A DNA stretch of 64,000 nt from Bacilli bacterium (GCA_900754115.1 CAAEBM010000056.1:2936-66935); one strand, 5' to 3'; shown: positions 43,156-54,818, counted from the stretch's first letter. Notes: generated by a model from the sequence alone, not told the origin. Made by a program: numbers and translations.

Positions 43156-43341
43156 TTTAAATTTCCTCCCTCCTAACATTAAATGCTTTCATTAATATAG
43201 ACTATCTTACATGCCATTTTTTGACAAATTTTTTAAAAATATTCATCTTTTTTAAAAAAAGCAAAAAAGCACTTTAACATTTACCACTATAAAACGAACG
43301 TGATAAAATATAAAGTGCATGTTTGATAGTTTTTTTTTTAA

Positions 43342-45380: not shown

Positions 45381-46070
45381 ATGGGAAATGTAATTCGTTT
45401 GCATGATTTTAATCTTTATTATAAAAAAGAAGGAAATGGAGATCCTGTAATTTTATTACATGGAAATCAAGAAAGTTTAAAAATTTTTGATAAGACGATA
45501 AAACGTTTATCAAAAAGATTTACTGTTTATGCTTTAGATAGTCGGGGTCATGGAAAAAGTGATGGCTTTAATGAGTCGTTTTCTTATCAACAAATGGCTG
45601 AGGATGTCAAAGAATTTATGGATTTAAAAAAAATAAAACAGGCGGCAATTTATGGATTTAGTGATGGTGGAATCGTCGCTATTTATTTTACTTTGGCTTA
45701 TCCTGAACGCGTCAAAACTTTAATGTTTAGTGGCGTTAATATTTTTCCAAAAGGCTTAAAATGGCGCTATCGTCTTTCTTATCAAATTAAAAGAAATCAA
45801 GCTACAGATTATAAGCAAAAAATGCTATATGATTTAATGCTTACGCAACCCAATTTAACATTTGAGGATTTAAAAGCCATTCAAGTTCCAACTTTAATGA
45901 CAGTGGCTAAACGAGATGTTGTCAAAAAGAGTCATACAAAAGCGATTCACCAAGCTATACAACATTCGCAATTAATATTAATAAAGAATGCCAATCATGA
46001 AAATTATGTTTGTAATTCTGAAATGATTGGTCGACTTTTGTTTCAATTTTTAACGACAACTGTTCAATAA
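45381..46070 (+). CDS. alpha/beta-fold hydrolase
   Basis: HG oxyanion motif (ILLHGN), nucleophile elbow GFSDGG and a C-terminal His (NANHE). GGTGAG RBS before ATG 45381. Confidence 0.8.
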   Translation: MGNVIRLHDFNLYYKKEGNGDPVILLHGNQESLKIFDKTIKRLSKRFTVYALDSRGHGKSDGFNESFSYQQMAEDVKEFMDLKKIKQAAIYGFSDGGIVAIYFTLAYPERVKTLMFSGVNIFPKGLKWRYRLSYQIKRNQATDYKQKMLYDLMLTQPNLTFEDLKAIQVPTLMTVAKRDVVKKSHTKAIHQAIQHSQLILIKNANHENYVCNSEMIGRLLFQFLTTTVQ

Positions 46071-46136
46071 TATTAATCATGTCGGATAATGAATTATCCA
46101 AAAGTGACACTTATACTATACATAGAGGTGAATGGT

Positions 46137-46433
46137 TTGAAAAATATTATCGCCGAAAGAATTAAGTGTCTGAGAGAACAAAATCAACTGACTCAAGCTC
46201 AACTGGCAAGAAAATTACAGGTTTCACGGAATTGTGTAAATGCATGGGAGATGGGAATTTCCCTTCCAAGTACAAAAATGATGTTAGAACTATCGACCTG
46301 TTTACACACAAGTTTAGATTATCTCATGGGAAAAGATGATAAACAGAAAATTGATATTAGTATTTGTAATGAAACGGAAAAACAAGTTTTGTATCAATTA
46401 TTAGAAATATTTCAAAATAAAAAAGTAAAGTAA
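46137..46433 (+). CDS. XRE-family HTH transcriptional regulator
   Basis: IKCLREQNQLTQAQLARKLQVSRNCVNAWEMG is a canonical HTH_3. A TTG start at 46137 follows AGAGGTG. The track ORF starts at ATG 46089, so the start is uncertain. Confidence 0.75.
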   Translation: MKNIIAERIKCLREQNQLTQAQLARKLQVSRNCVNAWEMGISLPSTKMMLELSTCLHTSLDYLMGKDDKQKIDISICNETEKQVLYQLLEIFQNKKVK

Positions 46434-46677: not shown

Positions 46678-48045
46678 GTGATGAAATTGAAATATGAAGA
46701 AAGTAACATTATTGAATTCAAAGAAGTTTTAACTGATGACTTAAATTTTGAAAAAGAAGTAGTTGCTTTTTTAAATTATTCTGAAGGTGGAATCATCTAT
46801 ATTGGTATTGATAAAAATAAAAAAGTAGTAGGTGTTGATAACCCTGATACCATTCAACTAAAAATAAAAGATAGAATAAAAAACAATATAGCACCTTCAA
46901 CGATTGGACTATATGACGTTGTGTTAGAAGAAAAAGAAGGAAAACATATCATCAAAATAATGATTTCTACAGGGAATAAAAAGCCTTATTATATTAGAAA
47001 ATATGGAAGAAGTCCTGAAGGCTGTTTTTTAAGGATTGGAAGTGCTAAAAATAAAATGAGTGAAGAGATGATTGAAGATTTATTTATTTCTCACACTCAA
47101 GTTTCTTTAAAGGATATTCCATCACCAAAGCAAGATTTAACTTTTAGACAATTAAGAATTTTATATGATCAAAATCAAAAAGATTTAAGCGACACTAGTT
47201 TTTTAGCTAATCTAGGTTTATTAACAGAAGATAAAAAACTGAATTATGTTGCTTATTTAGTAGCAGATTCTAATTCAGTTCCTATCCCTGTAGCAAGATA
47301 TGCGGGGAATGATAGGATAGATTTACTTGAAGCAAAAGAATGTGGGTTTAAATCTTTATTAACTGCAACAATAGAAATTCTAAGTTTAATAGAAGCCTAT
47401 AATAAGCGTTATATGCATAAGACCAATTATGGTCATGAAACTGCTTATATGTATGAGTTTGATGCGATAAAAGAGGCATTTGTAAACGCTGTCGTTCATA
47501 ATGATTATACGATGAGTTCTACACCATGTGTAAACTTTTATAATGATAGAATGGAGATTATTTCAGCAGGTGGACTTCCTCAAGGGTTAAATAAAGAAGC
47601 TTTCTTTAAAGGCATTATTTCAAGAAGAAATCCTGAATTGGTTAAAATATTTCAAGATGTCAAACTAACTGAAAATTTGGGTTCGGGAATGAGAAAGATA
47701 TTAAGATATTATGATAAAAGTTGTTTTGAGTTTGTAGGTAAATATATTATTTGTACATTTAAATTTAAACCGAATCCTTTTGTTAATGAATTTAATTCTT
47801 CTGTATCAGAAATAAAAAATGTTACAGATGATGTTACAGTAAATGTTACAGATAAAATAACTATTGAGGATAAAATATTAAGAATAATAGAAAGTGATAA
47901 AAATGTAACTCAAGAAAAAATATCTAAAATTCTTGGTATTTCTAGAATGACAGTATATAGAATTATTAAAAAAAGTAATAAGATTAAAAGAGTTGGATCT
48001 GATAAAAATGGTCATTGGGAAATAATAGAAAATAAAAAAGATTAA
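46678..48045 (+). CDS. AlbA_2 (Schlafen-like) DNA-binding domain, HATPase_c_4-like and C-terminal wHTH protein
   Basis: About 455 aa. N-terminal ESNIIEFKEVL...VAFLNYSEGGIIYIGID (AlbA_2 pattern), central FVNAVVHNDY...GSGMRKI (ATPase-like) and C-terminal ILRIIESDKNVTQEKISKILGISRMTVYRIIKK. Start is ambiguous (GTG 46678, ATG 46681 or TTG 46687). Confidence 0.75.
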   Translation: MMKLKYEESNIIEFKEVLTDDLNFEKEVVAFLNYSEGGIIYIGIDKNKKVVGVDNPDTIQLKIKDRIKNNIAPSTIGLYDVVLEEKEGKHIIKIMISTGNKKPYYIRKYGRSPEGCFLRIGSAKNKMSEEMIEDLFISHTQVSLKDIPSPKQDLTFRQLRILYDQNQKDLSDTSFLANLGLLTEDKKLNYVAYLVADSNSVPIPVARYAGNDRIDLLEAKECGFKSLLTATIEILSLIEAYNKRYMHKTNYGHETAYMYEFDAIKEAFVNAVVHNDYTMSSTPCVNFYNDRMEIISAGGLPQGLNKEAFFKGIISRRNPELVKIFQDVKLTENLGSGMRKILRYYDKSCFEFVGKYIICTFKFKPNPFVNEFNSSVSEIKNVTDDVTVNVTDKITIEDKILRIIESDKNVTQEKISKILGISRMTVYRIIKKSNKIKRVGSDKNGHWEIIENKKD

Positions 48046-48055
48046 TTAAATTAAG

Positions 48056-48092
48056 AAAAACCACTTCATTCATTAAATTGAGTGGTTTTTAA
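48056..48092 (+). terminator. Rho-independent terminator
   Basis: AAAAACCACT-N15-AGTGGTTTTT. Confidence 0.7.
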
Positions 48093-48593
48093 TTTTAGTT
48101 AAAATGATTTGAAATAAATATATTAATTAAATTGAAAAAGATTAGATTGTATCTAGTCTTTTTTAACATATAACATGTTTTAAATTTGAATTATAAACAA
48201 AAAAATATCAACTTAAAAACAAATTATTTATTGTATTTTTGTGAAATTTTCTCAAAATCAACGAAAATAATTTAAATATTATTGATTTTTTAATGGAAAT
48301 ACGAATAATGTGAAAAGATTCGTTTTCTATTCAATTTTATGTTTAAAAATTATAAATCTCTATGTTGGCTAATAAAGACAAAACACATGAAAAAACTTAA
48401 TTCATATCATTTTACAGATGCCCTAAAATTTAATAACTCTTCTTTTTATAATTGAATATATATTTTTCTGCCGATATGTTCTTTCAAAATATATTTCATG
48501 TTATGTCCTCATTTTTAAGAGTAGTAATCATCGCCTAAAGATGTCTTTATTTTTTTATAGCGGTCCCTCAATGCTACTTTTAAATGAAAAACC

Positions 48594-48619
48594 TTGACTT
48601 TCAGTGGGGGGGGTATAAT
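48594..48619 (+). promoter_or_regulatory. sigma-A-like promoter with a G8 homopolymer in the -35/-10 spacer
   Basis: TTGACT (48594-48599), 14-nt spacer TTCAGT+GGGGGGGG (G8 = 48606-48613), TATAAT (48614-48619). GGAGGGG RBS and ATG 48641 follow. Confidence 0.6.
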
Positions 48620-48640
48620 AAAAAAAGGAGGGGTTATTAT

Positions 48641-49660
48641 ATGTCAAAATCAAAAAAGAAAAGTTTTTTAAGTGCAGGTTCAAGGTTCGCTGGTTTAATT
48701 AAAGCAATTATTATATTTGCTATTATTGCTGTTGTAGGAGCAATCATTTTTGCAATAGTTGGGAAAGATGCTACATTTATTTTTGGCTTTGCATTCATGA
48801 CTGGTATTGTTAACGTTATTTTTTATTTTTTATTTAACTGGATAGCGGCTAGAGGTGGAAAACTTGGAAAAATTGCTTTTTTTATTGCTCTTGCGATAGA
48901 AGCGGTTTTTATTATTTTAGGAATTGCATCAATTGGAAATAAGGCAATTTTTTTCAGTTCAGCCAATACTTTTTTAGGAAGAACAGGATATGTTGGAATG
49001 ATTATTTGTGTTCCACTTTTACTAAATCTTTATGTTCTAGATTATAGTGATTTCACTTCATTTGACTATCTTAATGGATATAATCGGCATTTTTATGGGT
49101 TATATGGTACTGTTGTAAGTGGTGTTGTTGCAATTGTTTTAGCAATTTTATTAAAAGACTTAAATCTATTAAGTATCATTACATTATTAATTGCGATTGG
49201 TGTAAATGTAATTACTGTTCTTACATGGATAAAAATGGGTATTCCATTTTCAAAAATGGAAATAACAACCGGTTCTTCATCTAGTTCATCTTCATCAAGA
49301 TCATCTAGCAGTTATTCATCAAGTTCTAGTACAAATCAAGGTGGATATACAGATGTTTATTCTAGAATGGAGTCACTTTGCTATGATATGGCTGAAAATA
49401 AGAGTTTAAATTTTGGTGATGTTGATTTCCAAGTTAGTTTAGTAAATATTACTTCTAATACTATTAATTTTAGAGTTGATTATCGCACAGAATTAAGAGC
49501 TGAAAAAGAATCAGAATTATATGAATTTAATCGTTTTTTAGAACAAGCAATGAGAAATAAATTAAGTGAAGTATCTAGAAAAGCTAAAAATGAACTTAAG
49601 AATTTAAATGTTTCTACAAATTATTCTGTCAATGTTGAATCAGGAAGAAAACTAAATTAG
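48641..49660 (+). CDS. uncharacterised polytopic membrane protein with a poly-Ser linker and a C-terminal soluble domain
   Basis: 339 aa from ATG 48641 (AGGAGGGG RBS). About 6 TM helices, SSSSSSSSRSSSSYSSSSS linker, then a ~100-aa domain I could not assign to a family. The track ORF start at 48584 would read through the promoter and is rejected. Confidence 0.7.
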   Translation: MSKSKKKSFLSAGSRFAGLIKAIIIFAIIAVVGAIIFAIVGKDATFIFGFAFMTGIVNVIFYFLFNWIAARGGKLGKIAFFIALAIEAVFIILGIASIGNKAIFFSSANTFLGRTGYVGMIICVPLLLNLYVLDYSDFTSFDYLNGYNRHFYGLYGTVVSGVVAIVLAILLKDLNLLSIITLLIAIGVNVITVLTWIKMGIPFSKMEITTGSSSSSSSSRSSSSYSSSSSTNQGGYTDVYSRMESLCYDMAENKSLNFGDVDFQVSLVNITSNTINFRVDYRTELRAEKESELYEFNRFLEQAMRNKLSEVSRKAKNELKNLNVSTNYSVNVESGRKLN

Positions 49661-49737
49661 GCATTTTAAATCATAAAAGGGCTATAAAGTGAAGTGTGCT
49701 CAAAAATTGGAAACTTTAAAAGAATTAACAAACCTAT

Positions 49738-49776
49738 AGGATTGAGATTTGTAATCACAAAACTCAGTCCTTTTTG
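49738..49776 (+). terminator. Rho-independent terminator
   Basis: AGGATTGAG-N16-CTCAGTCCT (one mismatch) followed by a T5 run. Confidence 0.6.
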
Positions 49777-50012
49777 TTTAATTTTAATTCTTTTAAAGTA
49801 TTCTTTTTTTTTGACTATATTTTAAAACTAGGTTTTTATAGTTTTTTTATTGAAATTTAATAAAAATAGTTATAAAAATTTTAGATTCTAAAATAGCTTC
49901 TATAGTAAAATTTAATTTTGAAGAGTTTAAATGAGGTTTCTCTACCAAAATTATTAAAACCCTAATGAAAAAAGAATAAAATGCCTTGTTATTAATTACA
50001 TTCACAAATTGC

Positions 50013-50042
50013 TTGACAAAAGTCGGGGGGGGGAATTATAGT
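50013..50042 (+). promoter_or_regulatory. sigma-A-like promoter with a G9 homopolymer in the -35/-10 spacer
   Basis: TTGACA (50013-50018), 18-nt spacer AAAGTC+GGGGGGGGG+AAT (G9 = 50025-50033), TATAGT (50037-50042). GAGGGG RBS and ATG 50077 follow. Confidence 0.6.
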
Positions 50043-50076
50043 GATATTGAAATTATTTACAATGAGGGGATAATGT

Positions 50077-51252
50077 ATGGAAGAAAGTAAAAAAGAAATT
50101 TTAGCAAAATTGTATTGTATAAAAGCCGGTTTGAGTGCAATTTCTTTAGAAAAAGATAAATTGAAAAAAGAAGAAGACCAATGTATTCAAATCCATAAAG
50201 AAATTGATGAAAATCAAAATAAAAAGAATCAGACGATTCAACAATTAAAGATGGTATATCAAGACATAAAAAGTAACGAAAGAAACATTGCTGATTTAAA
50301 TTTTCAAAAGAATAAATCAGCAAAAGTTAATATTGGCCTTGTAATAGGTGTTGGGTTCTGTTCTGGAATATTTTTTGGTCCAATTATCTGGATTGTGATA
50401 GTATTTATTCATGATTTGCTACAATCCATGAAAAATGGTAATAACCAATTTAGTAGTAATTTAATGGGTAAAATTTGGATTCCGATGATTATTGTGGCAA
50501 TTTTAACTTCTATTATTTATTATTTGGTGGATAAGCACAAAAAAAATACAGATAAAAATAAGCAAATTCAAAATTATCAATCTCGCATTACGCCTTTGAA
50601 AAAAAGTCAAACAAAGATGCAAAACGATCTTTCTAATTTTGATGAGACAAATAATAGATTAAATCAATCCCATACACTTGCATTAAAAAAATATGATCAA
50701 GTTAAAAATACCACCATTGATGCAAGTAAAAATTTATATGAAGCTTTGATGTTTGAGTTTTCTTCAGTTTTAGATTCAAGAGACTGGGAAAATATCGACC
50801 TTATTATATTTTATTATGAAACAGGGAGAGCAGATACGCTGAAAGAGGCTTTACAACAAGTAGATAAACAAAGACGTCACGAAGAGTTAATAGATGCAAT
50901 TGAAGAAGCTTCAAATAAAATTTCAAATACAATTCAAATGAGTATGAAAGAATTACAATCTACGATGATAACTTGTTATCAAGGATTATCCTTACAACTA
51001 CAAAAACAACATAATCAATTAGTTCAGCAAATATCACAAGTTCAAACGAATTTAAATTCAATAGGAGAAAATATAGGAAAAGTTAATGAATCAATCCAAC
51101 AATTAAATCAAAAAACTACTGAATATATTACATCAATTGCATCAAAAGATTATTTGCAACAAGCATTACTTGAAAAAATAAGTGTCAATAGTTTATCTTT
51201 AGTAGAAGATGTTAATTATCTTTTATTTTATAAAAAACCAGCAGTTCTTTAA
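50077..51252 (+). CDS. uncharacterised coiled-coil membrane protein
   Basis: 391 aa. N-terminal ~85-aa heptad-like K/E/Q-rich segment, two TM helices (IGLVIGVGFCSGIFFGPIIWIVIVFI; IWIPMIIVAILTSIIYYLV) and a long Q/N-rich helical C-terminus. GAGGGG RBS. Confidence 0.7.
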   Translation: MEESKKEILAKLYCIKAGLSAISLEKDKLKKEEDQCIQIHKEIDENQNKKNQTIQQLKMVYQDIKSNERNIADLNFQKNKSAKVNIGLVIGVGFCSGIFFGPIIWIVIVFIHDLLQSMKNGNNQFSSNLMGKIWIPMIIVAILTSIIYYLVDKHKKNTDKNKQIQNYQSRITPLKKSQTKMQNDLSNFDETNNRLNQSHTLALKKYDQVKNTTIDASKNLYEALMFEFSSVLDSRDWENIDLIIFYYETGRADTLKEALQQVDKQRRHEELIDAIEEASNKISNTIQMSMKELQSTMITCYQGLSLQLQKQHNQLVQQISQVQTNLNSIGENIGKVNESIQQLNQKTTEYITSIASKDYLQQALLEKISVNSLSLVEDVNYLLFYKKPAVL

Positions 51253-51253
51253 A

Positions 51254-51293
51254 AAAAAGCAGAAATTGAATTGAATTCAAAATCTGCTTTTTA
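51254..51293. terminator. bidirectional terminator
   Basis: AAAGCAGA...TCTGCTTT outer stem enclosing the palindrome TTGAATTCAA, flanked by A8 and T5 runs, between convergent genes. Confidence 0.65.
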
Positions 51294-51305
51294 ATGAAAT
51301 TTGCA

Positions 51306-52673
51306 TTATTTTTGTCTTTTTGTCATTTTAAATTGAATCGAGTTTAATTTAGGATAAAATGGTTTTGATTGGATTGGTTCATCAATTGTTTCTTTTTTTG
51401 GAATATCAACAAATAATTTAGAAGTTGAATAATCTTTTAATAAAGTAGAAGAATCAACTTTGCTCACACTAGGCAATTCATAAGAACGAGTCAAATATAA
51501 AGACAATTTTGCACAGGCAGGACCCATGAGTTCATATAAAATGGAAGAAGAAAGAATAATAGTGGTTAGCATATTTCCTAAAGTGGAAGGTAAAAGTCGA
51601 GCGCCTAAACTAGCGAGTCCAATAGCGACTCCCGCTTGTGGAATCAAAGCAAGACCTAAATATTTTTTATTATTAGAAGTTGAATGGGTGATGATACTGC
51701 CTAGGGTTGCTCCAATATATTTGCCAACAATGCGAACGATAAAGTAAACAACACCAATGATTCCTAACGTCGATAAAGTAGAAAGGTTGAGATTCATTCC
51801 AGATAATACAAAGAAACATAATAAAATCGGTGGAGAGAATCGACTTAGACTTTCAAATAAGTGATGATCGTGACTTAAATTAATATAAATAGTTCCCATC
51901 ATCATACAACCTAATAAAGGAGAAATGTCAAAAATTGAACAAACACCACTTAATAATAAAATCATGGAAATAGCGATGATAAGTTGACTATCTGAACTGC
52001 GTTTCTTTTTGAAAAGTAAAAAGATGAAAAGTCCGAAAAGTAAACCGATAGCGATGATTGCAAGATTTTGCAAAATGGGTTTTAATAGCAACATGATACT
52101 GAATTTTGCTTTTGATTCTACAGCATTCGCTACAGCAACGGCAATAGAAAACAAAACTAAAGAGACGACGTCATCTAAAGCAACAATTTGTAAAACTGAA
52201 TCGACAAAGTCCCCTTTCGCTTTGGTTTGACGAATGGTCATTAAAGTGGAGGCGGGAGCAGTAGCAGAAGCAATTGCTGCTAAAATTAAACTAAACGATA
52301 AAGATAAATGAAAAAGAAAATACATGACAATAAAGATGAAAATTGATGCCATTACGGATTCAAAAAGAGTAATGACTACAATTTTTTTGCCACTTTTTTT
52401 CAAGTTAGACAACATAAAATATTCTCCAACATTAAAAGCAATAAAAGCTAAAGCGATATCTGTTACGAAATCCATATTGGAGATGACATCACTTGGAACT
52501 AATTTTAAGCAATAAGGACCAATTAAAATTCCTGAAAGAATATAACCTGTGACATTAGGTAATTTTAATTTTTTTGTAATTCGACTAAATAAAAATCCTG
52601 CAATTAAAATGATAGCTAAACAAATTAATATTTTTGCAGAATGAGTCATGTTTTGAAAAACGTTATCAAGCAT
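51306..52673 (-). CDS. cation:proton antiporter (Na+/H+ exchanger family, CPA-type)
   Basis: 455 aa with about 12 TM helices. N-terminal KLKLPNVTGYILSGILIGPY motif typical of Kef/NapA-type exchangers. Confidence 0.8.
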   Translation of the reverse strand: MLDNVFQNMTHSAKILICLAIILIAGFLFSRITKKLKLPNVTGYILSGILIGPYCLKLVPSDVISNMDFVTDIALAFIAFNVGEYFMLSNLKKSGKKIVVITLFESVMASIFIFIVMYFLFHLSLSFSLILAAIASATAPASTLMTIRQTKAKGDFVDSVLQIVALDDVVSLVLFSIAVAVANAVESKAKFSIMLLLKPILQNLAIIAIGLLFGLFIFLLFKKKRSSDSQLIIAISMILLLSGVCSIFDISPLLGCMMMGTIYINLSHDHHLFESLSRFSPPILLCFFVLSGMNLNLSTLSTLGIIGVVYFIVRIVGKYIGATLGSIITHSTSNNKKYLGLALIPQAGVAIGLASLGARLLPSTLGNMLTTIILSSSILYELMGPACAKLSLYLTRSYELPSVSKVDSSTLLKDYSTSKLFVDIPKKETIDEPIQSKPFYPKLNSIQFKMTKRQK

Positions 52674-53840: not shown

Positions 53841-54818
53841 ATGAATCTTTCTTTCAAAAACGAAAACAAGACAATATTTCGTCATGCCATTGTTTTTATC
53901 GCAACATTTTTAATTTTATCATTGTTTTTATTGATACCAATTTTTGAAAATAATAGTCAAGAAGTTAGTTTGTTTCAATTGATGTTATCCAATATTTTTC
54001 ATTTATCATCAACTTCTATTCTCAAATGGTTGTTTTATGCCTTTATTCCTTTAAGTTTGTATCTTGTCAGCTTGATTTATTTTATTGCAACAATTATTTT
54101 ATTCATTCAAAAAAATGGAAAGATAAATGGTTCTCAATATTTATTTTTTCAAATCATCTATCTTATTTTATTAGCAGATAGTATCGTTATTGGCGCATTT
54201 TATTATTTTTCTGCAAGACAAATCGTTTTATATGTCATTGGATTGCTGCTATTACTCTCAAGTTTGATATGTAATTATCTTTTTTTGAAAAAAGAATGGC
54301 CTATAGTTGATATAAAGAAAGAAAAGTCTCAAAAAATGGTGCAAAAAAACAAGACTTTTCTTGTTCATGCTATCCTATCTTTTTTGTTTTGCATCGCGTT
54401 GATCGTATTTTTAGCAATCAAAAATATTGATTATCAAGGAGGAGATGGCATTTATAGTTGGCTATTAATAGTTTTGGAGTCTATGTCACCTTATTTTTTA
54501 TTTGATTCTTTTTATCCTCAAGTTCAATCTTTACTTTTATTTGTAACGTTTATCATCGTTCTTTGTTATGCCATCCAGTTACTTCTTTGGTGTTTTAAAC
54601 AAAAGCCATCAATTTCCTTATCTACACTTTTATTTTATGAAATTAATTTTATTCTCTGTTCAAGTTTATTTTTAATTTTTGATCTTGATATTTCTGCACA
54701 ATATCGAATTGTTTTTCATTTATCACTTTATTTGGTATTGCCAGGATTATGTTTTGGATTGTATCATTTTATTTATACATTGGTACAAGCAAAAAAAGTG
54801 GTTGGAAGTGAAAAATAA
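53841..54818 (+). CDS. hypothetical polytopic membrane protein
   Basis: 325 aa with about 8 TM helices. AAGGAG RBS. I recognised no family motif. Confidence 0.6.
   Translation: MNLSFKNENKTIFRHAIVFIATFLILSLFLLIPIFENNSQEVSLFQLMLSNIFHLSSTSILKWLFYAFIPLSLYLVSLIYFIATIILFIQKNGKINGSQYLFFQIIYLILLADSIVIGAFYYFSARQIVLYVIGLLLLLSSLICNYLFLKKEWPIVDIKKEKSQKMVQKNKTFLVHAILSFLFCIALIVFLAIKNIDYQGGDGIYSWLLIVLESMSPYFLFDSFYPQVQSLLLFVTFIIVLCYAIQLLLWCFKQKPSISLSTLLFYEINFILCSSLFLIFDLDISAQYRIVFHLSLYLVLPGLCFGLYHFIYTLVQAKKVVGSEK

Follow-up and report, generated by a model that had tools for sequence, protein, structure and literature searches.

In porA of Neisseria meningitidis a homopolymeric C/G tract lies between the -35 and -10 elements of the promoter, and in Mycoplasma hyorhinis a poly-A tract occupies the -35/-10 spacer of the vlp genes, several single genes that switch independently of each other. 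Opc of Neisseria meningitidis is expressed from a promoter with a size-variable poly-cytidine tract, and simple sequence repeats (SSRs) in general can modulate promoters via the distance between their elements (PMC5084427). Vlp is counted among the phase-variable systems, whose known cargo is dominated by surface structures and restriction-modification (R-M) systems; the apparent restriction of such systems to pathogens may be a database bias (PMC11868660). Here, two genes, called A and B, are described in a stretch of 64,000 nucleotides from a Bacilli bacterium (GCA_900754115.1 CAAEBM010000056.1:2936-66935), which in its entirety is referred to as the window. The probable explanation of the locus is that A and B are separate single-gene units, each having a sigma-70-type promoter, the spacing of which is set by a hypermutable poly-G tract.

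The window has a GC content of about 29%. Only two runs of six or more G or C residues are present in its 64 kb, a G8 preceding gene A and a G9 preceding gene B, and both are situated in promoter spacers. A G8 run is expected 0.03 times per window, as estimated from 100 dinucleotide-preserving shuffles, and two runs of G8-9 exceed this expectation about 60-fold. A homopolymer was taken to be long enough for slippage at about 7 nt or more.

The gene B promoter matches the consensus at 11 of 12 positions and is the best promoter-like site between positions 46000 and 52900, as judged by consensus match only. Its spacer is 18 nt long in the window and covers 16-19 nt over the range of G7 to G10. 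The gene A spacer is 14 nt long in the window (G8) and 15 nt long with a G9 tract. The working range of the spacer was taken to be 16-18 nt with an optimum of 17 nt, following rules from model organisms. The gene A promoter is predicted to be weak or OFF, and mostly OFF, because its spacer of 14-15 nt is below this range, and it is missing from the promoter-scan list because the spacer is shorter than 16 nt. The upstream regions of A and B were compared for common repeats, as would be left by a duplicated promoter cassette, and only the G-run and the -10 element were found. An operator-like palindrome was not found at the gene B promoter of the window.

Gene A is preceded by a Shine-Dalgarno sequence, AGGAGG, at positions 48626-48631. 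The feature had been thought to start at 48584, where there is another ATG. This ATG is situated 5' of the -35 hexamer, has no ribosome-binding site and is in frame with gene A only owing to the G8 tract, through which it reads. Because of its position and the missing ribosome-binding site, it is probably a false start. Automated calls of gene A give a product of 339, 351 or 358 residues, or a change of frame, depending on the tract length, which is an annotation artefact.

Length variation of the tracts was found in a set of 11 contigs from other samples, which encode an identical A or B protein and were aligned to the window, several of them over about 13 kb. Outside scaffold gaps (N runs and adjacent misassembly), each contig differs from the window by 0-3 changes. 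All indels among these near-clonal contigs are in the G tracts, with one exception in a T6 run. In the window species, tract B was observed as G9 seven times, as G8 and G10 twice each and as G7 once, while tract A was observed as G8 six times and as G9 twice. The two tracts vary independently, one contig having G8 in A and G10 in B and another G9 in both. The original prediction that A and B are the cargo of homopolymer promoter switches is strongly supported by the placement of the tracts, by their rarity, by their length polymorphism in near-identical contigs and by the distant B homologues described below. Four contigs of the window species start at a tract, three of them at or just after tract A and one inside tract B, which is suggestive of switching within a clonal population and could also be technical. 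An exact-pattern scan of the JGI metagenomes for the window's B promoter gave no matches.

The exceptional indel is a 1-nt deletion, present in one sample (ERR14040057, L007), in the T6 run at window positions 47020-47025, which splits the AlbA_2/HATPase_c_4 gene into open reading frames (ORFs) of 116 and 325 residues.

Table 1. Features of the A and B locus and its surroundings (positions counted from the first nucleotide of the window).
Feature	Position	Strand	Details
XRE-family helix-turn-helix (HTH) regulator, small	46089-46433	+	Pfam HTH_3 2.6e-11
AlbA_2 (Schlafen-type)/HATPase_c_4/HTH protein	46678-48045	+	Pfam 4.2e-20, 2.1e-13, 9e-06
AlbA_2 gene terminator hairpin	48056-48090	+	z = -3.6
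Gene A promoter (predicted)	48594-48619	+	-35 TTGACT 48594-48599, TTCAGT, G8 48606-48613, -10 TATAAT 48614-48619
Gene A	48641-49660	+	339 aa, ATG at 48641; predicted N-in/C-in near-orphan
Gene A intrinsic terminator	49738-49779	+	hairpin 49738-49770, then UUUUUGUUU
Gene B promoter (predicted)	50013-50042	+	-35 TTGACA 50013-50018, AAAGTC, G9 50025-50033, AAT, -10 TATAGT 50037-50042
Gene B	50077-51252	+	391 aa; predicted N-in/C-in, uncharacterised family
Bidirectional intrinsic terminator of gene B and the Na+/H+ exchanger gene	51254-51297	.	A-run and U-run flanks
Na+/H+ exchanger gene	51306-52673	-	convergent to gene B; Pfam 3.7e-37

The placement of a poly-G tract 5' of B-family genes recurs in three lineages having 27-49% GC, so that homologues of B in two lineages besides that of the window were found to carry homopolymer promoters, a point raised with the original prediction. 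In a Christensenella-like clade (genomes of 44-49% GC, B 31-36% identical) the promoter is TTGACA-AAAACGC-G(n)-TAGAAT. The tract of this clade was G9 in 15 contigs, G10 in five and G7 in one of a first set, and G9 in six, G10 in two and G7 in none of a second collection, with some of the length differences occurring between contigs that encode an identical protein. The promoter pattern has eight matches in the JGI metagenomes, and four contigs of the clade begin at the tract. Several Christensenella-like species retain the tract in a conserved housekeeping context, consisting of the genes for a lipoprotein, B, Dak, Fe-ADH and NadE. In the third lineage (L024, 35% GC) the promoter is TTGACA-AAAATA-G8-TGTATATT.

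A decayed second promoter copy, TTGACAAAAACG..AAAAACAAA..GGGCATAGAAT, is situated about 70 nt 5' of the promoter with the G tract in Christensenella-like contigs (L011:1414-1455, also L013, L135, L141 and L144). It has the same -35 and -10 hexamers, with a longer A-rich spacer instead of the G tract, and looks like an old promoter duplication. The lipoprotein gene of this clade, which is divergent from B, varies in predicted length. An effect of the tract on this length was rejected, as the start region of the gene is identical and the length differences result from gene calling and C-terminal variation.

The tract is absent from close relatives of the window's B, namely Candidatus Caccosoma faecigallinarum (58% identity) and two Bacilli metagenome-assembled genomes (MAGs; 35-36% identity), and from a near relative of L024. 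Gain or loss of the tract must therefore have occurred more than once. The majority of the tractless members of the family have near-consensus promoters of the TTGACA-17-TATAAT type, with palindromes at the spacer, and an adjacent small XRE gene, often divergent. In the 110 nt upstream of the tractless genes of L040, L041, L042, L043, L046, L048 and L049, the hexamers are near-perfect TTGACA/TATAAT, and clear palindromes, such as TCCTACAAATTGTAGGA of L041 and TTAGGTCAAAAGTC...GGTCTTTTGACCTAA of L049, lie within the spacer or next to it. Given the adjacent XRE genes at several loci, these palindromes are candidate operators, suggesting that the tractless lineages may be controlled by XRE/operator repression. 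As many as 14 of the 37 loci have an XRE gene next to the B homologue, often in divergent orientation. Among 97 flanking proteins of B loci that were scanned, XRE was the sole recurrent neighbour (9/97) and the rest were mostly housekeeping proteins.

The proposed mechanism is as follows. Slipped-strand mispairing during replication would add G residues to the tracts or remove them. The tract length would determine the spacer length and hence the strength of the promoter in a heritable and reversible manner, as inferred from SSR promoters (PMC5084427), and it is by analogy with these that tract length is taken to alter transcription. Gene B is predicted to be ON in its common states, G9 with a spacer of 18 nt and G8 with one of 17 nt, and another one or two slips to either side would take the spacer out of the range of 16-18 nt. 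Gene A is predicted to be OFF or weak with G8 or G9 (14-15 nt) and would need G10-G12 for full activity. Independent tracts would thus generate several combinations of A and B expression within a clonal population. Across the family, most lineages would have a solitary B-family gene with a strong promoter, an operator in the form of a palindrome and a small XRE gene, while in three lineages poly-G would stand in the operator's place.

Gene B has its own Shine-Dalgarno sequence. The AlphaFold2 (AF2) model of its product is all-helical, with a mean predicted local distance difference test (pLDDT) score of 74. It consists of a helix formed by residues 3-79, a hydrophobic hairpin of about residues 86-112 and 128-153, a helix continuing to residue 228 and a helical C-terminal domain, with helices extending to residue 383. 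The ORF, the AF2 model and the hydropathy profile agree with the coordinates, the coiled coil, the two transmembrane (TM) helices, here forming the hairpin, and the long helical C-terminal region that the original prediction gave for gene B. The protein contains the DWENIDLIIFYYETGRADTLKEALQQVDKQRR sequence quoted at that time, and its C-terminal helical domain holds the likewise quoted DWENIDLIIFYYETGRADTLKEALQQVD motif. The parts of the protein are thus a conserved N-terminal helix with a coiled coil, the TM hairpin, a second coiled coil and a conserved C-terminal domain, RDWxxIDLIIFxxETGRADTLKEALQQVD.

The B family was defined from alignments by the N-terminal LYxxRAGxSxxS helix, the TM hairpin and the C-terminal RDWxx(I/V/L)DLIIFxxETGRADxxKEALQQVD. 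It has at least 276 homologues (E <= 1e-3), and relatives occur in 37 species-representative genomes, nearly all of which are from uncultured gut Clostridia/Christensenellales and Bacilli. The window's B has all invariant positions of the family and aligns over its full length with 20 homologues at 29-60% identity. Both termini are predicted by hydropathy and the positive-inside rule to be cytoplasmic, which would place about 90% of the protein, including every invariant residue, inside the cell. The sole predicted outer loop (about residues 113-127) is short, and no other part of the family is less conserved. The homologues of L035, L037, L039, L043 and L052 are extended at the N-terminus by a zinc-ribbon-like CxxC...CxxC segment, such as MAFCSNCGAEVFGKFCSNCG, which fits the cytoplasmic location of the N-terminus. 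The hairpin would anchor the protein in the membrane, with the N-terminal helix and the RDW...ETGRADTLKEALQQVD domain held in the cytoplasm on a long antiparallel coiled-coil stalk. The predicted exposure of the conserved parts to the cytoplasm would be unusual for phase-variable cargo.

Two divergent B-family paralogues are arranged tail to tail in a Clostridia MAG from goat caecum (L052:4908-6239, +, and L052:6248-7213, -). In the second of these the N-terminal helix is missing and the motif is degenerate (NWGYLDSLISVFQNQRADTIASALAYLD). A homology search of a large protein database with this divergent paralogue retrieved four relatives, all of which are unannotated.

Neither A nor B belongs to a recognised family, as had been noticed from the sequence, and neither was identified by family, structure, defence, phage or plasmid searches. 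For gene B, nothing above threshold was found in Pfam, NCBIfam, PADLOC or PHROGs, only coiled-coil and TM noise. The best match in PADLOC-DB 2.0 was LeoA (E = 9e-4, 16 bits), which is below threshold and confined to the coiled-coil region. PDB sequences searched with B profiles yielded only heptad noise of the apolipoprotein, viral fusion and MCP types. A tblastn search with B gave no match in phage and plasmid collections, and no relatives were found in IMG/VR. Precomputed 'faint' matches to PF28006 (HpsJ) exist for some Christensenella-clade homologues and not for the window's B; no literature on PF28006/HpsJ was found. Structure prediction, which had been proposed as a way of placing the two proteins, did not do so: a Foldseek search of PDB and BFVD with the AF2 model of B gave nothing with E < 0.001, and the model of A was too poor for a fold search.

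The top Foldseek matches of B in PDB are SmhB, AhlB and MakA, members of the ClyA family of tripartite alpha-pore-forming toxins, with a best E of 0.031 and TM-scores of 0.20-0.33, which are non-significant. These toxins (SmhB, AhlB, MakA/MakE) resemble B in having about 350-400 residues, long antiparallel helices and a hydrophobic hairpin at one end, and the NCBIfam MakE model matches B with E = 9.5e-4 and 18 bits against a cut-off of 360 bits. However, the ClyA family was not retrieved by the PDB profile search with B, and its members are soluble toxins, whereas the hydrophobic segments of B are typical of a constitutive integral membrane protein. The identification of B as an alpha-pore former was rejected, because the Foldseek and NCBIfam matches are far below significance and the likeness is one of shape only.

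The ORF and hydropathy analyses confirmed the coordinates, the six TM helices, the Ser-rich linker and the C-terminal domain of about 100 residues that had been described for gene A. The hydrophobic segments are formed by residues of about 22-40, 46-68, 78-96, 115-133, 150-170 and 176-194. The linker, TTGSSSSSSSSRSSSSYSSSSSTNQGG, which is regarded as disordered, comprises residues 209-235 and contains 17 Ser among its 27 residues. The alpha/beta C-terminal domain (residues 233-335) is predicted to have a helix-strand-strand-helix-strand fold. Hydropathy and the positive-inside rule predict that both termini are cytoplasmic, and neither A nor B has a signal peptide, lipobox or wall anchor. The linker is encoded by an imperfect 24-nt tandem duplication (49277-49324, 75% identical), the length of which is constant among the sampled contigs.

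Gene A is a near-orphan. It retrieved only itself from 5.8 billion clustered proteins and a single relative, P0122, from 1.84 billion representatives (E = 1.5e-21, about 34-37% identity). P0122 has the same architecture, and its gene directly follows another ORF, with no G tract and no B-like neighbour at the locus. With gene A, no match in Pfam, NCBIfam, PADLOC, PHROGs or PDB sequences reached the level required for a family; no family of PADLOC-DB 2.0 was matched, and its C-terminal domain found heptad-type noise only among PDB sequences. The AF2 model, computed from an alignment of two sequences, has a mean pLDDT of 46. Gene A thus appears to be a rare polytopic membrane protein that would have acquired a switch of the same kind as that of gene B.

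The two genes are predicted to be independent single-gene transcription units encoding unrelated proteins, since each has its own promoter and terminator and a strong hairpin lies between them. The gene A terminator, which ends in a U-run, has a minimum free energy (MFE) of -17.9 kcal/mol compared with -6.7 for shuffles (z = -5.2), and the terminator after B has an MFE of -14.9 kcal/mol compared with -4.2 (z = -4.9). The islet containing the genes had been described as bounded by about 500 and 400 bp of non-coding AT-rich DNA. The stretches concerned measure 595 bp (48046-48640) and 416 bp (49661-50076) and do not bound an islet, being situated upstream of A and upstream of B, respectively.

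The XRE regulator and the AlbA_2/ATPase/HTH protein were correctly recognised as neighbours, in agreement with Pfam. The XRE gene is 3.6 kb 5' of B with two genes between them, and its product is 83% identical to the XRE protein encoded directly 5' of the B homologue in Candidatus Caccosoma faecigallinarum (L017), the closest relative of the window's B. The XRE protein is thus more conserved between the two loci than B itself (58%). The gene order in Caccosoma is hydrolase, XRE, B and AbiLi-like ATPase, without the AlbA_2 gene and without gene A, and therefore these two genes look like insertions into an ancestral XRE-B pair. The XRE gene was probably paired with gene B in the ancestor and regulates it. 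The AlbA_2 protein is a neighbour and is outside the switch. There is no nucleotide homology between the intergenic regions of the window and those of Caccosoma. The gene right after the B homologue of Caccosoma (L017:2116-3384) encodes an AbiLi-like AAA ATPase (PADLOC 2.3e-85), and two PDC-S01 (DUF4143) ATPase genes precede B in L024. Together with the AlbA_2/Schlafen-type gene of the window, defence-type ATPases adjoin B in three loci, which are those of AT-rich lineages only.

ThrRS of the window shares 85% identity with its counterparts in MAGs of uncultured gut Bacilli and 65-69% with those of Erysipelotrichaceae and Izemoplasmatales, and the host is therefore placed in an uncultured gut Bacilli lineage. 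The contigs with the same locus come from human gut metagenomes. A 325-residue, highly hydrophobic polytopic membrane protein without a Pfam match is encoded at 53841-54818, between a LysR regulator and thrS, and its gene is kept in all contigs of the window species. Among A and T runs, only one in the window reaches a length of 10, a T10 at 43330-43339, just 3' of htpG. An Rfam search of the whole window found no RNA family in the AT-rich spacers.

Several observations weigh against the switch. All tract lengths were read from assembly consensus sequences, and both certain Illumina chemistries and long-read assemblies are prone to errors in poly-G, and breaks at a tract can be technical; in the L012 contig an Illumina adapter is fused to the tract. 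The ON and OFF assignments depend on consensus spacing rules from model organisms, and gene A has never been observed with a tract of a predicted ON length. Both B lineages have G9 most often, yet with different nominal spacers (18 and 16 nt), suggesting that the -10 assignments may be off by a few bases or that spacing is not the whole story. Most members of the B family have no tract, and thus the switch does not define the family. No specific biochemical function is supported, the context being mostly housekeeping and PADLOC having no significant match for A or B. It could be argued from the consensus origin of the tract lengths, the adapter fusion, the modal G9 and the predicted OFF lengths of gene A, together with the breaking of contigs at the tracts, that the tracts are neutral mutational hotspots, artefacts of sequencing or assembly, or elements of incidental length with a binding or structural role, and that A and B are conventionally regulated. 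This is quite improbable, however. Neither chance nor artefact accounts readily for runs so rare in the window being exactly in the two promoter spacers, for the same placement upstream of the B family in lineages of such different GC content, or for the retention of the tract in several Christensenella-like species. Furthermore, full-length contigs produced by different assemblers from different samples have differing integer tract lengths within identical flanks.

The original prediction regarded A and B as a two-gene envelope or defence module, the phase variation of which would mask a receptor or limit a costly abortive-infection effector. The genes are adjacent, on the same strand, encode membrane proteins and have the same switch design, and defence-associated ATPases are near B in the three loci mentioned above. 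Nevertheless, a co-functional module of this kind is very unlikely, and A-B as a conserved module is largely refuted. An all-against-all BLAST comparison of flanking ORFs, covering most of the 37 species loci for B, found no recurrent A-like neighbour, so that the gene-neighbourhood check showed no linkage of A with B in the loci examined. The closest relative of B has no A, the sole relative of A is not beside a B homologue, the promoters and terminators are separate, the tracts vary independently, and neither the phage and plasmid collections nor IMG/VR contain B. Direct support for a defence role was not obtained, as PADLOC had nothing significant. It is improbable as well that B, possibly along with A, belongs to the classical surface components subject to phase variation (for instance phage receptors, adhesins or antigens) and serves to evade phage or host immunity. 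Known phase-variable cargo is mostly of the surface or R-M type (PMC11868660), the poor conservation of the outer loop of B would fit diversifying selection, and Ser-rich linkers like that of A are often seen in wall-spanning regions. However, a role of B in the envelope or as a receptor is made less likely because both of its conserved domains are predicted to be cytoplasmic and the outer loop is short and unconserved. The zinc-ribbon fusions at the N-terminus, the predicted cytoplasmic termini of both proteins and the absence of surface-targeting signals point in the same direction, and most lineages appear to use XRE and an operator on B rather than a mechanism of variation.

Separate single-gene units with poly-G-dependent promoters thus remain the favoured explanation, which leaves the role of the B product to be considered. 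The apparent control of the B family by an XRE repressor or a stochastic switch would suggest a product that is costly or harmful. It is conceivable, and proposed here tentatively, that B acts in this way at the cytoplasmic face of the membrane, for instance as a phage-exclusion, abortive-infection-type or membrane-perturbing effector, so that it is either repressed or expressed in a subpopulation. The defence-type ATPases adjoining B in the three AT-rich lineages are a weak hint of a phage-related role; a mobile defence gene is made less likely by the surroundings in Christensenellales, which are mostly housekeeping and vertically stable. More speculative, and unlikely in its entirety, is the idea that the B family is a conserved bet-hedging membrane effector of gut Firmicutes that has not been described before, a coiled-coil protein anchored by its hairpin and facing the cytoplasm. 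Its expression would be so harmful that lineages hold it down with a dedicated XRE repressor or have placed it, on three or more independent occasions, behind a poly-G switch, with expression in a subpopulation only. Such an effector might act in single-gene abortive infection or phage exclusion, or in altruistic permeabilisation of the membrane with an alpha-pore-former-like geometry, and A would join it in the phase-variable gene set of the host as a further member specific to the lineage.

Whatever its function, the control of the B family by poly-G in three lineages and apparently by XRE in others strongly hints at conflicting selection on its expression and makes the family a well-defined target for functional work. 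The tract alleles could serve as an in-situ ON/OFF marker that is read from metagenomes. The locus is a sequence-level, population-supported case of repeat-driven phase variation in uncultured gut commensal Firmicutes; a literature search found nothing linking Christensenellaceae with phase variation.

The type of switch is already known from Neisseria opc and porA and from Mycoplasma vlp. As in opc and porA, a G/C homopolymer of about 8-11 nt is situated inside the promoter spacer, its length is polymorphic among otherwise near-identical genomes, and single-base slippage would shift the spacing of the hexamers and hence transcription, as inferred here. Neisseria is a Gram-negative pathogen, whereas the host of the present locus is an uncultured gut commensal Firmicute (Bacilli, and also Christensenellales). 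The Neisseria cargo consists of outer-membrane porins and adhesins, whereas A and B are inner-membrane proteins with predicted cytoplasmic domains. Mycoplasma hyorhinis vlp resembles A and B in its spacer homopolymers, its combinatorial states and its low-GC, Mollicutes-related lineage. It differs in that the tracts are poly-A and the cargo is a single size-varying paralogous family of surface lipoproteins, in contrast to poly-G in a genome of 29% GC and two unrelated, non-lipoprotein cargo genes. Many B lineages are similar to pairs of an XRE repressor and a single target (Cro/CI-like or C-protein-like), having an XRE gene of 70-125 codons beside B, often divergent, and a palindrome at the spacer. 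The window differs from such pairs in having the XRE gene at a distance upstream, poly-G in the spacer and no operator identified at the B promoter. Compared with all these systems, it is the hosts, gut commensal Firmicutes including Christensenellales, and the cargo, an uncharacterised cytoplasm-facing membrane protein family and a near-orphan, that are new.

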